DNA of 64,000 nt from a plasmid, in the NCBI RefSeq assembly GCF_056712565.1, contig NZ_JBWXXM010000004.1; one strand, given 5' to 3'. Position numbers and translations under genes: made by a program. Shown here in pieces: positions 6,786 through 55,832 of this stretch. Under the pieces are notes generated by a model, which searched no databases, was not told the origin of the DNA, and saw nothing but the letters and a program-made list of their open reading frames with translations. Positions within the stretch are counted from its first letter, which is position 1. Every line of letters starts with the position of its first letter.

Positions 6786-7978
6786 GTGACCTGGGACGAT
6801 CACAAGAAGAATTTTGCTCGCCTGGCGCGAGATGGTGGTTACACCATCGCACAATATGCCGCCGAGTTTAATCTCAACCCAAACACCGCACGTCGTTATC
6901 TCCGTGCATTCAAAGAAGACACCGGAACAGCGGACAGCCGTAAGCCAAATAAGCCTGTCAGAAAACCACTAAAAAGCATGATCATTGATCACGCTAATGA
7001 TCAACGTGCAGGTGATCACATTGTGGCTGAAATGGCTGAAAAACAAAGAGTTAATGCTGTTGTCAGTGCCGCAGTCGAGAACGCGAAGCGCCAGAATAAG
7101 CGCATAAATGATCGTTCTGATGATCATGACGTGATCACCCGCGCCCACCGGACCTTACGTGATCGCCTGGAACGCGACACCCTGGATGATGATGGTGAAC
7201 GCTTTGAATTCGAAGCTGGCGATTACCTGATAGATAACGTTGAAGCGCGGAAGGCCGCGCGCGCTATGTTGCGTCGGTCCGGGGCTGATGTTCTGGAAAC
7301 CACTCTTCTGGAAAAGTCTCTCTCTCATCTCCTTATGCTGGAGAACGCCAGGGATACGTGTATTCGCTTGGTTCAGGAAATGCGCGATCAGCAAAAAGAC
7401 GATGATGAAGGAACTCCGCCTGAATACCGTATCGCGAGCATGCTAAACAGCTGTTCCGCGCAGATAAGCAGCCTGATCAACACCATTTACAGCATCCGGA
7501 ATAACTATCGAAAAGAAAGCCGGGAGGCGGAAAAGCACGCTTTGTCTATGGGGCAAGCTGGCATTGTAAGCTGGCATACGAACGAAAGCGTGAAAACAAC
7601 TGGTCAGTGCTGGAGGCAGCTGAATTCATCGAGGCGCATGGAGGGAAAGTACCGCCCCTGATGCTGGAGCAAATCAAAGCCGATCTGCGTGCTCCTAAGA
7701 CCAATACCGATGATGAGGAAAGGCAAACAGCCGTCGGTGGCCCTTCTCTTGAAGATCTGGACAAAGTTGCGCGAGAACGGGCCGCCAACCGCCGCGCCGA
7801 TGCCGCATTGTGGATTGAGCAGCGTAGGGAAGAAATCGCCGATATCGTTGATACAGGCGGTTATGGAGATGTTGATACTGAAGGTGTATCAAACGACCCA
7901 TGGCTGGAACAAGACCTGGACGAAGACGAGGAGGAAGACGAAGAAGTTACCCGCAAGCTATACGGGGATGATGATTAA
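6786..7978 (+). CDS. pacA: terminase small subunit PacA, reading frame broken in this sequence (ORFs 6786-7661 and 7607-7978)
   Basis: Contains the pac hexamer cluster; directly precedes pacB; total span 1193 nt (one short of a multiple of 3); the second frame reads continuously upstream to about 7580. Confidence 0.65.
6979..7137. other. pac packaging site: 4 + 3 TGATCA/G hexamers flanking the cleavage region
   Basis: TGATCA at 6979, 6986, 6998, 7013 and TGATCG/TGATCA at 7109, 7121, 7132; each contains a Dam GATC; the 4+3 layout is that of P1 pac. Confidence 0.75.
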
Positions 7979-9462
7979 TGGCCAGAAGTTGCGTAACGGA
8001 TCCACGTTGGCGCGAGCTGGTGGCGCTATATCGTTATGACTGGATTGCTGCCGCTGATGTTTTGTTCGGCAAAACACCTACCTGGCAGCAGGATCTGATT
8101 ATTGAGTCTGTGCAGGAACAGGGTAGCAAGACATCTGTTTCGTCTGGTCACGGTACCGGGAAATCAGACATGACTTCTATCATGATCATGTTGTTCATAA
8201 TCATGTATCCAGGTGCCCGTGCCATTATCGTTGCGAACAAAATTCAGCAGGTAATGACCGGTATATTCAAGTACATCAAGATAAACTGGGCTACTGCCAC
8301 CAGCCGTTTCCCATGGCTTGCTGATTATTTTGTTCTGACAGAAACCGCTTTCTATGAGATTACTGGTAAAGGTGTATGGACTGTAGTACCGAAGGGCTTT
8401 CGTCTGGGAAGTGAAGAAGCTCTCGCCGGTGAACACGCAGATCATCTTCTGTATATTATCGATGAAGCCTCCGGTGTCAGTGATAGAGCTTTCGGTATCA
8501 TCACCGGTGCTCTTACCGGACAGGATAACCGCATCTTATTGCTGTCACAGCCTACACGCCCAAGCGGCTATTTCTACGATACACACCATAAACTGGCCAA
8601 GCGTCCTGGTAACCCTGATGGCGTTTATACGGCGATCACGCTTAACAGTGAGGAATCACCGTTGGTAACGCCAGCATTTATCAAAATGAAGCTGGCGGAG
8701 TACGGCGGGCGTGATAACCCTATGTACATGATTAAGGTACGCGGCCTATTCCCTAAATCACAGGATGGCTTCCTTCTTGGACGTGATGAGGTTGAACGTG
8801 CGACGCGGCGGAAAGTCAAGATTGCCAAAGGATGGGGCTGGCTTGCATGTGTGGACGTTGCTGGTGGTACGGGACGGGATAAGTCCGTTATCAATATCAT
8901 GATGGTGTCCGGCCAGAGAAATAAACGCCGTGTAATCAACTATCGAATGCTGGAATACACAGACGTTACAGAAACGCAGCTTGCCGCCAAAATTTTCGCA
9001 GAATGTAATCCTGAGCGATTCCCAAATATCACCATAGCGATAGACGGCGATGGGCTGGGTAAAGCAACGGCGGATCTGATGTACGAGTATTATGGTATTA
9101 CCGTACAGCGTATACGCTGGGGTAAAAAGATGCATAGCCGTGAAGATAAGAGCCTGTACTTTGATAAACGTGCTTATGCCAACGTTCAAGCCGCAGAGGC
9201 CGTAAAATCTGGTCGTATGAGACTGGATAAGGGTAATGAAACTATTGAGGAAGCGTCGAAAATCCCTGTAGGGATTAACTCCGCAGGTCAATGGAAGGTG
9301 ATGAGTAAGGAGGATATGAAGAAAAAACTCAACCTGCACTCACCAGACCATTGGGATACATATTGTTTCGCTATGCTGGCGGATTATGTTCCCCAGGATG
9401 AAGTGCTTAGCGTCGAAGACGAAGCGCAGGTTGATGAAGCTCTGGCATGGCTTAATGAATAA
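7978..9462 (+). CDS. pacB: terminase large subunit PacB
   Basis: 494-aa product; follows pacA; terminase-like ATPase region. Confidence 0.85.
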
Positions 9463-10338: not shown

Positions 10339-10360
10339 TGATCCTCCTCCAGAATTGACA

Positions 10361-10403
10361 TGGCCAACAACTCACAGCGGATTACACTGGGAGTTGTTGG
10401 CCA
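10361..10403 (-). promoter_or_regulatory. perfect 13-bp inverted repeat in the coi-c1 intercistronic region
   Basis: tggccaacaactc ...17 nt... gagttgttggcca. Confidence 0.35.
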
Positions 10404-10448
10404 CCATTATAGAAGGATCCAACGAAAATAATAGATTTATTAGTGCAT

Positions 10449-10896: not shown

Positions 10897-10913
10897 TAAT
10901 TTATTAGAGCAAT
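10897..10913 (-). promoter_or_regulatory. C1 operator (Op99-type) upstream of coi-c1
   Basis: Plus strand taatttattagagcaat; reverse complement matches ATTGCTCTAATAAATT(A), 16/17. Confidence 0.55.
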
Positions 10914-10979: not shown

Positions 10980-10996
10980 ATTGCTCTAATAATTCT
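10980..10996 (+). promoter_or_regulatory. C1 operator-like 17-mer
   Basis: attgctctaataattct, 15/17 to consensus. Confidence 0.5.
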
Positions 10997-11029: not shown

Positions 11030-11063
11030 TTCAGACCTAATAACTTCGTATAGCATACATTAT
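11030..11063. other. loxP site-specific recombination site
   Basis: Exact 34-bp ATAACTTCGTATAGCATACATTATACGAAGTTAT (13-bp inverted repeats plus 8-bp spacer). Confidence 0.97.
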
Positions 11064-11171
11064 ACGAAGTTATCTTAAGGGTTATTGAACATGATCAATT
11101 TACCTGTAAATCCATACAGTTCAATACCTTATCAGGTCAAATAGTGATCACTTGATCATTTGATCAAGGTT

Positions 11172-11230
11172 GCGCTACGTAAAATCTGTGAAATGTTGGC
11201 AGTGTTAGTGCTCCAGATTTCGCGTAGCGC
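11172..11230. promoter_or_regulatory. 17-bp imperfect inverted repeat pair in the cra/cre leader
   Basis: gcgctacgtaaaatctg ...25 nt... cagatttcgcgtagcgc (15/17 complementary); preceded by four GATC within 85 bp. Confidence 0.4.
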
Positions 11231-11262
11231 ACTTAGCACCACCAATCAATCAGAGGTGAAAA

Positions 11263-11484
11263 ATGGGATATTCAGCTGCTAAAGTGTCCACTCATATTGA
11301 GCTTGAGAAAAACCGTGGTTACTGGCGGGCAAAAGGGTTTGATCGTGATAGTTGTCAACTGTCATTATCGCGCGGTGAAGAGAAAATAGAACGCACGCGC
11401 GGTCGCTGGCGTTTCTATGACGAGAACCATAAACAGGTAAAGGCAGAGCCGATCCTGTACACTTTACTTAAAACCATTATCTGA
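11263..11484 (+). CDS. Cra-position small protein (cre-associated function), 73 aa
   Basis: 73-aa ORF ending 8 nt before cre. Confidence 0.5.
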   Translation: MGYSAAKVSTHIELEKNRGYWRAKGFDRDSCQLSLSRGEEKIERTRGRWRFYDENHKQVKAEPILYTLLKTII

Positions 11485-11491
11485 GTGTTAA

Positions 11492-12523
11492 ATGTCCAAT
11501 TTACTGACCGTACACCAAAATTTGCCTGCATTACCGGTCGATGCAACGAGTGATGAGGTTCGCAAGAACCTGATGGACATGTTCAGGGATCGCCAGGCGT
11601 TTTCTGAGCATACCTGGAAAATGCTTCTGTCCGTTTGCCGATCGTGGGCGGCATGGTGCAAGTTGAATAACCGGAAATGGTTTCCCGCAGAACCTGAAGA
11701 TGTTCGCGATTATCTTCTATATCTTCAGGCGCGCGGTCTGGCAGTAAAAACTATCCAGCAACATTTGGGCCAGCTAAACATGCTTCATCGTCGGTCCGGG
11801 CTGCCACGACCAAGTGACAGTAATGCTGTTTCACTGGTCATGCGACGGATCCGAAAAGAAAACGTTGATGCCGGTGAACGTGCAAAACAGGCACTGGCGT
11901 TCGAACGCACTGATTTCGACCAGGTTCGTTCACTCATGGAAAATAGCGATCGCTGCCAGGATATACGTAATCTGGCATTTCTGGGGATTGCTTATAACAC
12001 CCTATTACGTATAGCCGAAATTGCCAGGATCAGGGTTAAAGATATCTCACGTACTGACGGTGGGAGAATGTTAATCCATATTGGCAGAACGAAAACGCTG
12101 GTTAGCACCGCAGGTGTAGAGAAGGCACTTAGCCTGGGGGTAACTAAACTGGTCGAGCGATGGATTTCTGTCTCTGGTGTGGCTGATGATCCGAATAACT
12201 ACTTGTTTTGCCGTGTCAGAAAAAATGGTGTTGCCGCGCCATCTGCCACCAGCCAGCTATCAACTCGCGCCCTGGAAGGGATTTTTGAAGCAACTCATCG
12301 ATTGATTTACGGCGCTAAGGATGACTCTGGTCAGAGATACCTGGCCTGGTCTGGACACAGTGCCCGTGTCGGAGCCGCGCGAGATATGGCCCGCGCCGGA
12401 GTTTCAATACCGGAGATCATGCAAGCTGGTGGCTGGACCAACGTAAATATTGTCATGAACTATATCCGTAACCTGGATAGTGAAACGGGGGCAATGGTGC
12501 GCCTGCTGGAAGATGGCGATTAG
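11492..12523 (+). CDS. cre: Cre tyrosine recombinase
   Basis: 343-aa product MSNLLTVHQNLPALPVDATSDEVRKNLMDMFRDRQAFSEHTWKMLLSVCRSWAAWCKL... with catalytic Tyr context NVNIVMNYIR; adjacent loxP. Confidence 0.97.
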   Translation: MSNLLTVHQNLPALPVDATSDEVRKNLMDMFRDRQAFSEHTWKMLLSVCRSWAAWCKLNNRKWFPAEPEDVRDYLLYLQARGLAVKTIQQHLGQLNMLHRRSGLPRPSDSNAVSLVMRRIRKENVDAGERAKQALAFERTDFDQVRSLMENSDRCQDIRNLAFLGIAYNTLLRIAEIARIRVKDISRTDGGRMLIHIGRTKTLVSTAGVEKALSLGVTKLVERWISVSGVADDPNNYLFCRVRKNGVAAPSATSQLSTRALEGIFEATHRLIYGAKDDSGQRYLAWSGHSARVGAARDMARAGVSIPEIMQAGGWTNVNIVMNYIRNLDSETGAMVRLLEDGD

Positions 12524-12540
12524 CCGTTCATTTGCGCTTG

Positions 12541-12557
12541 ATTGCTCTAATTATTTG
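12541..12557 (+). promoter_or_regulatory. C1 operator-like 17-mer downstream of cre
   Basis: attgctctaattatttg, 14/17. Confidence 0.45.
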
Positions 12558-36717: not shown

Positions 36718-37171
36718 GGCACTGCCCGTTGGTGTACCTGTTCCATGGCCCTCAGCCACACCACCAACGGGGTGGCTGAAATGCAATGGTGCAGCATTTT
36801 CTTCTGAAAAGTACCCAAATCTGGCAAAGGTTTACCCTACTAATAAATTGCCGGATCTACGGGGCGAATTTATTCGCGGCTGGGATGACGGGCGGGGGAT
36901 TGACTCTGGCCGTAATTTATTATCTGCACAGAATGATGCAATTCAGAATATTGTTGGTTCTTTCGGGCGTACTCAGCTTTTTAGAGATGTACTTAGTTCA
37001 GGGCCATTTAGTCAACATGGTCAAGTATTATCTACAGGCCTAAAGGAAACGGAAATTATTGAGGGTTATGGCTCTTATAACTGGACATTCGACGCCTCTC
37101 GCTCAGTTCGTACAGCATCTGAAACCCGCCCCCGTAATATTGCATTTAATTACATCGTAAGGGCGGCATAA
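36704..37171 (+). CDS. silent tail-fibre C-terminal cassette tfc-1 (TTG start, no promoter)
   Basis: Begins (M/L)GEGSALPVGVPVPWPSATPPTGWLKCNGAAFSSEKYPNLAKVYPTNKLPDLRGEFIRGWDDGRG, same as the junction of S, then a unique 80-aa core, ends ETRPRNIAFNYIVRAA. Confidence 0.65.
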   Translation: MGEGSALPVGVPVPWPSATPPTGWLKCNGAAFSSEKYPNLAKVYPTNKLPDLRGEFIRGWDDGRGIDSGRNLLSAQNDAIQNIVGSFGRTQLFRDVLSSGPFSQHGQVLSTGLKETEIIEGYGSYNWTFDASRSVRTASETRPRNIAFNYIVRAA

Positions 37172-55776: not shown

Positions 55777-55800
55777 AAACTGGCAGGTTTCTGAGCAGAT
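55777..55800 (+). terminator. intrinsic terminator after rlfA-position gene
   Basis: A6 cctgccag caaa ctggcagg tttctg. Confidence 0.65.
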
Positions 55801-55832
55801 CGTCCAACCCGATCTGGATCGGGTCAGAAAAA

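Follow-up and report, generated by a model that had tools for sequence, protein, structure and literature searches.

An inverted repeat in the cra/cre leader of a P1/P7-type phage-plasmid and its conservation among Cre-family loci

Cre/loxP is among the most widely used genetic tools, and to our knowledge the native control of cre has hardly been revisited since 1986. The question raised by the locus studied here is what an imperfect inverted repeat, placed downstream of a cluster of GATC sites in the leader between loxP and the cra and cre genes, is likely to do. The stretch of plasmid DNA analysed (64,000 nucleotides, here called the window) is of the P1/P7 phage-plasmid type.

The leader between loxP and cra

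The leader (11074-11270) is 100% identical to that of RCS47, 99% to that of P7 and 96% to that of P1, which makes the locus orthologous to the experimentally characterised cre locus of P1. The comparison with the P1 cre upstream region that the preliminary description had called for thus bore fruit: the locus is the same as in the records AF234172, AF503408 and X03453, and the Dam sites, the LexA box, P2coi and P3cre all map across. Because P1 coordinate 1, the central A of lox, corresponds to window position 11057, features of P1 and P7 could be transferred by adding 11056. The LexA box is annotated in both the P1 and the P7 record, P2coi and P3cre in only the P1 record of the two. The features are as follows.

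11040-11073, no strand: loxP (13-8-13), perfect, read directly from the sequence and also found as inverted repeat I5
11093-11096, no strand: GATC, the first Dam site of the cre regulatory region (37-40 in the P1 and P7 records)
11097-11124, minus strand: P2coi promoter, -35 TTGAAC and -10 TAAATT, transferred from P1 annotation 41-68, reading leftward through loxP
11102-11121, no strand: LexA box, annotated in P1 and P7 at 46-65
11145-11166, no strand: three TGATCA hexamers, 8 bp apart, with GATC at 11146, 11154 and 11162, Dam sites 2-4 of P7
11160-11185, plus strand: P3cre (Sternberg's pR1), annotated sigma-70 promoter, from P1 104-129 and X03453 155-180
11171-11188, plus strand: left arm of the repeat, TGCGCTACGTAAAATCTG, forward copy of the motif, holding the P3cre -10
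11189-11213, no strand: spacer of the repeat, 25 nt, fixed in length and free to vary in sequence
11214-11231, minus strand: right arm of the repeat, CAGATTTCGCGTAGCGCA, inverted copy of the motif
11242-11252, plus strand: conserved block CCAATCAATCA, between the repeat and the cra Shine-Dalgarno sequence
11263-11484, plus strand: cra, 73 aa, reading frame with Shine-Dalgarno sequence GAGGTG, the element starting at 11254
11492-12523, plus strand: cre, 343 aa, 3' of cra

The genes c1 and coi are located on the opposite strand upstream of loxP, and Cra gave no match in Pfam. In the P1 record, the hexamers of P3cre are placed at 104-109 (-35) and 124-129 (-10), and the promoter is stated to be identical to Sternberg's pR1. 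They correspond to TTGATC at 11160-11165 and TAAAAT at 11180-11185 in the window, are both labelled as putative in the source records and are separated by an odd spacer of only 14 bp. A consensus promoter scan of the region returned no matches, P3cre included.

The LexA operator pattern CTGT-N8-ACAG is present as CTGTAAATCCATACAG at 11104-11119. This box, which presumably controls the divergent promoter P2coi next to the GATC cluster, is kept in diverged lineages too and is an element distinct from the inverted repeat, the arms of which do not fit the LexA consensus. It lies at the centre of a 21-nt imperfect palindrome (11083-11103 / 11106-11126, 76% complementary), which gives a -35-like TTGAAC hexamer on each strand. 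One of these is that of P2coi; its mirror image at 11084-11089 on the plus strand might be the -35 of a rightward promoter under LexA control, from which the whole repeat would be transcribed.

The four GATC sites of the leader are located at 11093, 11146, 11154 and 11162 and span 73 bp. The preliminary description had counted four sites within 85 bp; the number and the last three positions hold, while the first site is at 11093 and not at 11083. Its placing of Dam-sensitive sites in the cra/cre leader is borne out, since these GATCs are the sites annotated for cre regulation in P1 and P7. The P1 record lists Dam methylation sites 1-3 at 37, 98 and 106 and the P7 record four at 37, 90, 98 and 106, so that the window has the exact pattern of P7, whereas P1 lacks the first TGATCA site. 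One GATC (11162-11165) lies inside the annotated -35 hexamer of P3cre and another, at 11154, within an alternative -35. Dam methylation at the cluster overlapping the -35 of P3cre (pR1) presumably lowers the activity of the promoter. The window contains three GATCs within 16 bp at this locus only. Since 0.19 such runs are expected per simulated window (P ~0.18), the count is weak evidence by itself, and we consider the cluster as real because of its conservation and the existing annotation. The cre promoters pR1-pR3 and their regulation by DNA methylation were reportedly treated by Sternberg, Sauer, Hoess and Abremski in 1986 (J Mol Biol 187:197), as can be seen from the title and the GenBank annotation. 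The GATC part of the finding is thus correct and nothing new, because the P1 and P7 records already annotate Dam sites for cre.

Other tight GATC clusters in the window are a run of three at 55798-55817 and two groups of four at 6980-7014 and 7110-7164, just upstream of a 494-aa frame (7978-9462). The latter two (6980-7164) look like the P1 pac site, and their TGATCA/G hexamers resemble the TGATCA of the cre leader.

The inverted repeat has arms of 18 nt, of which 16 of 18 positions are complementary (with one T.G and one A.C), around the 25-nt spacer, and is thereby slightly longer than the 17 bp with 15 matches that had been described previously. Only two repeats with at least 16 of 18 complementary positions and a loop of at most 40 nt are present in the window, compared to 0.03 expected from Markov simulations, and the repeat is no chance feature. 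The other one (10360-10404, 16/18, loop of 5-9 nt) is located between the start of c1 and the end of coi. None of the records AF234172, AF503408 and X03453 annotates the inverted repeat; in the P1 record, which holds 535 features, nothing is annotated at this position. In the cre sequence of 1986 (X03453), the right arm differs from AF234172 at about 11227-11229 by a 2-nt deletion and a G-to-C change, which cut the repeat to 13 of 18. These differences look like compression errors at the hairpin, and they would have hidden the repeat.

One earlier suggestion was that the hairpin could terminate or attenuate transcription and thereby insulate loxP. The repeat has the length and the ability to fold, but an intrinsic terminator with a GC-rich stem, a loop of 3-8 nt and a run of T or U is not what was found: no T-run follows the stem on either strand, the loop has 25 nt, and a scan for terminators returned zero matches. 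The transcript from P3cre lacks the left arm and cannot form the hairpin, because the -10 of this promoter (11180-11185) lies inside that arm. For rightward transcription the repeat is downstream of loxP, and it cannot shield loxP from P2coi, because P2coi, which reads through loxP, lies between the two. We therefore consider termination or insulation here to be highly improbable. The other alternative in the preliminary description, a protein-binding site, is consistent with the findings presented below.

Conservation of the repeat in Cre-family loci

In 50 distinct leaders of the P1 type, the arms are nearly invariant, with three rare variants, while 13 of the 25 spacer columns vary, and all five differences between the P1-type and P7-type sequences across the repeat are located in the spacer. 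A protein search added contigs with Cre homologs of 81% to 36% identity, and the diverged sample included a Salmonella plasmid lineage, the Cronobacter phage JK004 and further viral contigs. A scan of genome contigs with Cre as the query returned only two near-identical loci, and a LexA-box scan of viral contigs returned mostly unrelated phages. The repeat, with the same arm sequence and the same 18-25-18 layout, is present upstream of a Cre-like gene in 121 of 127 loci, so that the loss of conservation that had been named in advance as an argument against its importance was not seen. This layout spans about 20 lineages, in which Cre identity ranges from 100% to 36%. Every variant has a 25-nt spacer with no insertion or deletion, yet the spacer sequences of different lineages are unrelated to one another. 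Across 18 lineages, each arm has a mean pairwise identity of 0.79, compared to 0.39 for the spacer and 0.32-0.34 for the flanks. Judging from these sequence comparisons, the repeat is a real element, probably a control element, that is missing from the annotation of P1 and is unexpectedly deeply conserved.

The surroundings of the repeat are conserved to different degrees. GATC or TGATCA clusters are found at most 120 nt upstream of the repeat in 20 of the 22 Cre-like lineages, and two to four GATCs are located upstream of it in 16 of the 22, compared to 0.47 expected. The block CCAATCAATCA is kept at Cre identities of 64-100%, also where a different gene follows, and is absent from the lineages with 36-46% identity. 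In the P1-type loci and the lineages with 64-81% identity, other genes are placed between the right arm and the Cre-like gene, while the distant lineages lack cra, and in these a gap of roughly 11-41 nt, mostly of about 25-36 nt, separates the right arm from the start of the recombinase. Phage D6, which has the Dre/rox system, has lost the left arm and retains the core of the right arm only, TTTCGCGTAGCG, 27 nt before the start of dre.

The conservation pattern bears on the possibility that the arms are weak lox-like half-sites bound by Cre, which would then regulate its own expression. Compared by eye, the core of the arm, CTACGTAAA, and the lox arm, CTTCGTATA, agree at seven of nine positions. 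Over the whole lox arm, however, the match is 7 of 13, which is about the level of chance once every offset is allowed. Moreover, an arm of the lox type would change together with the recombinase and its lox site. The lox-like arms are indeed changed at 44-46% Cre identity (AACTTTATATAA, TTACTATAGATAA, ACATTACATAA, AACTTGATATAA), whereas the arms of the repeat are not, and the repeat is therefore no Cre site. The arm motif is also present in T7-like phages, which have no Cre. We give this explanation hardly any weight.

Another explanation is that the repeat is a palindromic module with no function of its own, in which the arms are homogenised by gene conversion or template switching, or which is a relic of a translation-start cassette like that of T7 gene 18.5. 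In line with this, the cre-antisense spacers in lineages L216 (...GGGGGGTTGCCCAT) and L225 (...GGAGGGTGATTGCCCAT) resemble the spacer of the T7-like phages, that of L216 having ATC where the T7-like sequence has ATG. The orientation of the spacer also seems to be flipped between the P1 type and the D6 type, as assessed by eye, as if the arms recombine. Yet, neutral DNA would not hold an identity of 79% next to flanks of about 33% and a Cre identity of 36-46%, nor would it keep the length of the spacer fixed, and the right-arm core in D6 survives with no partner arm to copy. We find a functionless module improbable, though less so than self-regulation by Cre.

Some of the diverged loci have features of their own. 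In lineages with about 80% Cre identity (L084 1167-2695; L085 2733-4015; L213 and L214), a 356-aa gene is placed between the leader and the cra homolog, so that the operon reads leader, in some cases a 68-aa gene, the 356-aa gene, the cra-like gene and cre; neither the 356-aa nor the 68-aa gene product matched Pfam. In L216 (6151-8353), which is P1-like with a Cre identity of 46%, a colicin Ia-type gene and a microcin-type immunity gene follow shortly downstream of the cre-like gene. The L252 family had no match among named phages. In two of the 50 P1-type leaders, all similarity to the other leaders breaks off leftward of about 11074, at or close to the right end of loxP, and these could represent recombinant junctions made at lox or an alignment artefact.

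Selection on arm sequence or on pairing

The main alternative, which we take seriously but hold to be rather unlikely, is that the repeat acts as a leader hairpin at the RNA level. Transcripts that start upstream of 11171 would hold both arms, fold, and alter the stability or translation of the first downstream gene; their possible sources are a promoter in the GATC cluster, the LexA region and read-through across loxP. Variants of this explanation are a fold-back mechanism as in IS10 and IS50, or a hairpin around the translation start, as the layout in T7 suggests. Structure prediction gives the hairpin -37.6 kcal/mol in the long transcript, the folding z-scores of the whole region are -2.4 on the plus strand and -3.8 on the minus strand, and the two outer pairs show some compensatory change, with U-A in seven sequences and G-C in five. 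The short distance between the right arm and the start of the Cre-like gene in the distant lineages also speaks for a role in the transcript.

The alignment of 22 lineages, however, provides no covariation beyond the conservation of the sequence, although its absence is weak evidence where both arms hardly vary. In this alignment, 87.6% of the cells are paired, compared to 86.1 +/- 0.9% with shuffled partners, and four pairs are changed on both sides, compared to 4.8 expected. The mismatches are not biased towards wobble pairs (28 G.U, 18 A.C and 31 of the transversion type). Pairing is down to 12-13 of 18 positions in some lineages while the arm sequences persist, the inner 5 bp are unpaired in L214 with the right arm intact, and arms survive where they have no partner. 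A strictly invariant 25-nt loop of free sequence would be unexpected for a simple hairpin. We rejected a structured spacer, since the z-scores from spacer shuffling were not consistent between sequences (+0.9 to -2.8). The Shine-Dalgarno sequence of cra, 23 nt downstream of the right arm, is not sequestered, and a covariance-model search of the repeat region against Rfam 15 gave chance-level matches only, with E above 1. Taken together, the results for pairing, covariation, L214 and the spacer suggest that selection maintains the sequence of each arm and the distance between the arms rather than pairing itself.

The transposases of IS10 and IS50 (Tn10 and Tn5) are controlled by Dam sites in the promoter, in IS50 also by a LexA site, and by fold-back inhibition, which silences read-through transcripts. 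The cre leader shares with them a gene for a DNA-rearranging enzyme, GATC in the promoter, a nearby LexA box and an inverted repeat, as well as a layout with the promoter inside the repeat, in which the left arm is placed upstream of, or overlaps with, the transcription start of the gene. This similarity favours the hairpin. In contrast to IS10 and IS50, in which the fold-back sequesters the ribosome-binding site, the arms in the cre leader lie clear of it and are conserved in sequence with no covariation.

We also considered a small upstream reading frame, since the variable positions in the right-arm frame CAG-AWT-TCR-CGT-AGC-GCN looked like third-codon positions. In the Salmonella lineage (L084 ~1113-1169), such a frame starts in the spacer, with ATG at positions 20-22, encodes MSQNSRSAREKPINQATT and overlaps the start of the next gene, and in the window (11193-11282) a frame of 29 codons begins with the ATG at 11193 and overlaps with the start of cra. 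The frame was rejected, as spacer positions 23-25 are stop codons in JK004 and L088, and a start codon is missing from P1. The put antiterminator RNA of HK022 was also rejected, since the HK022 genome contains no copy of the motif at up to three mismatches, a comparison by sequence similarity only.

The arm motif in other phages and the proposed binding sites

A phage regulator with several targets would predict further copies of the arm motif, but none was found elsewhere in the window. The 16-mer CAGAWTTCACGTAGCG has 113 exact matches in viral contigs, compared to seven for the reversed sequence of the same composition. In T7-like phages, the forward motif CGCTACGTGAAATCTG is placed 19 nt upstream of gene 18.5, which encodes the inner-membrane spanin, and 317 phage records match this leader region. 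The copy in T7 itself, CCTACGTGAAATCTG, is located at 36885-36899, between the E. coli promoter E / RNase III site R18.5 and gene 18.5. Next come exactly 25 nt, which include the Shine-Dalgarno sequence and the ATG (spacer positions 20-22), after which codons 3-8 of gp18.5 form a partial inverted copy. The T7 leader is thus similar to the P1 repeat in the motif, the length of the spacer and the partial inverted copy, but different in that the spacer holds the translation start, the right arm is coding and the region is transcribed by T7 RNA polymerase. Two further phage families have the motif 45 and 66 nt upstream of Rz-like genes, so that the motif has the orientation of the gene in three separate spanin contexts. 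No published function was found for the motif in the gene 18.5 leader, and a full-text search of a library of papers for the motif returned primers and construct sequences only, with no functional context.

These spanin leaders cut both ways. The shared orientation of the motif and the gene favours an RNA-level role in the spanin contexts, and in T7 the motif and its partial copy bracket the ribosome-binding site and start codon of gene 18.5, as a hairpin around the translation start would do. On the other hand, the minimum-energy fold of the T7 sequence does not use the proposed arms (z -1.1).

The reading that we put forward, with rather less than even confidence, is that a sequence-specific recognition site is present in two inverted copies around the cre promoter and that a candidate factor binds to both. 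The repeat would then be two inverted copies of a 16-18-nt motif with the consensus TGCGCTACGTGAAATCTG, exactly 25 nt apart, and no thermodynamic hairpin signal. The centres of the arms are 43 bp apart, or about four helical turns, so that the two copies would share one face of the helix. Counted from the annotated start of P3cre, one copy would be located at about -21 to -4, covering the -10, and the other at +23 to +40. A sequence-specific factor that binds both copies might clamp the promoter and set the level of expression of the cre operon, and the arms may work alongside the Dam cluster and the LexA box. The arrangement resembles gal OE/OI and lac O1/O3, where two recognition copies flank the RNA polymerase site at a fixed spacing and on the same face of the helix, but differs from these in the separation of only 43 bp and in that the copies are inverted 18-mers and not each a small palindrome. 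The factor is probably encoded by the host, because the same motif is present in unrelated phages of the Enterobacterales. What the sequences show is the motif with its geometry and conservation; that a factor binds, which factor this is and in which direction it regulates are what we infer. Some observations limit this proposal. In several lineages, the left arm has no usable -10 (TGAATT). The position of the operator relative to the promoter depends on P3cre hexamers that are labelled as putative and have an odd spacer. Finally, late DNA of the T7 type is an unlikely place for a host DNA-binding site, which counts against two operators.

A broader version of the proposal, about which we are doubtful, treats the arms as copies of a 16-nt cis-element that has not been described before, CGCTACGTGAAATCTG. 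This element, in most cases present as an 18-25-18 palindromic module, would be read by one conserved factor of the Enterobacterales, either protein or RNA, and would have been recruited by unrelated phages. P1-like and D6-like phage-plasmids would use this element in the leader of the Cre/Dre-family operon, always beside clusters of Dam sites, while T7-like and other phages would use it in the leaders of spanin (lysis) genes. The occurrence in the spanin leaders hints at a common host factor. If such a shared input exists, it would be a new piece of phage-host regulation, in which one host input is wired into both recombinase expression and lysis. The coupling of the element to Dam clusters in about 20 lineages suggests that the state of replication may be read jointly with a second signal. 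An unannotated element between loxP and cre that is better conserved than the Cre protein itself may also provide a handle on how phage-plasmids time cyclisation and dimer resolution.

The consensus sequences of known binding sites were compared to the motif by eye, and these leads were dismissed by inspection. None of the sites for LexA, CRP, FNR, IHF, DnaA, OxyR, ArgR, PurR, MetR or TyrR fits, nor do matS, ops/RfaH, the class II pause signal of T7 or the sigma-54, sigma-E and sigma-32 promoters. Cra was rejected as the binding factor, since it has no match in Pfam and since distant lineages without cra have retained the repeat. There is no resemblance either between the arms and the 17-mer operator of the P1 C1 repressor (ATTGCTCTAATAAATTT-like).

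Sequences of the latter kind are found on both sides of the locus. A perfect 13-nt inverted pair, TTATTAGAGCAAT / ATTGCTCTAATAA, is located upstream of loxP at 10901-10913 / 10980-10992, and ATTGCTCTAATTATTT is located near 12540-12556, just after cre; both match ATTGCTCTAATAAATTT, which we take to be the consensus of the C1 operator. These sites probably represent the Op99-type operators and the operator preceding c8.
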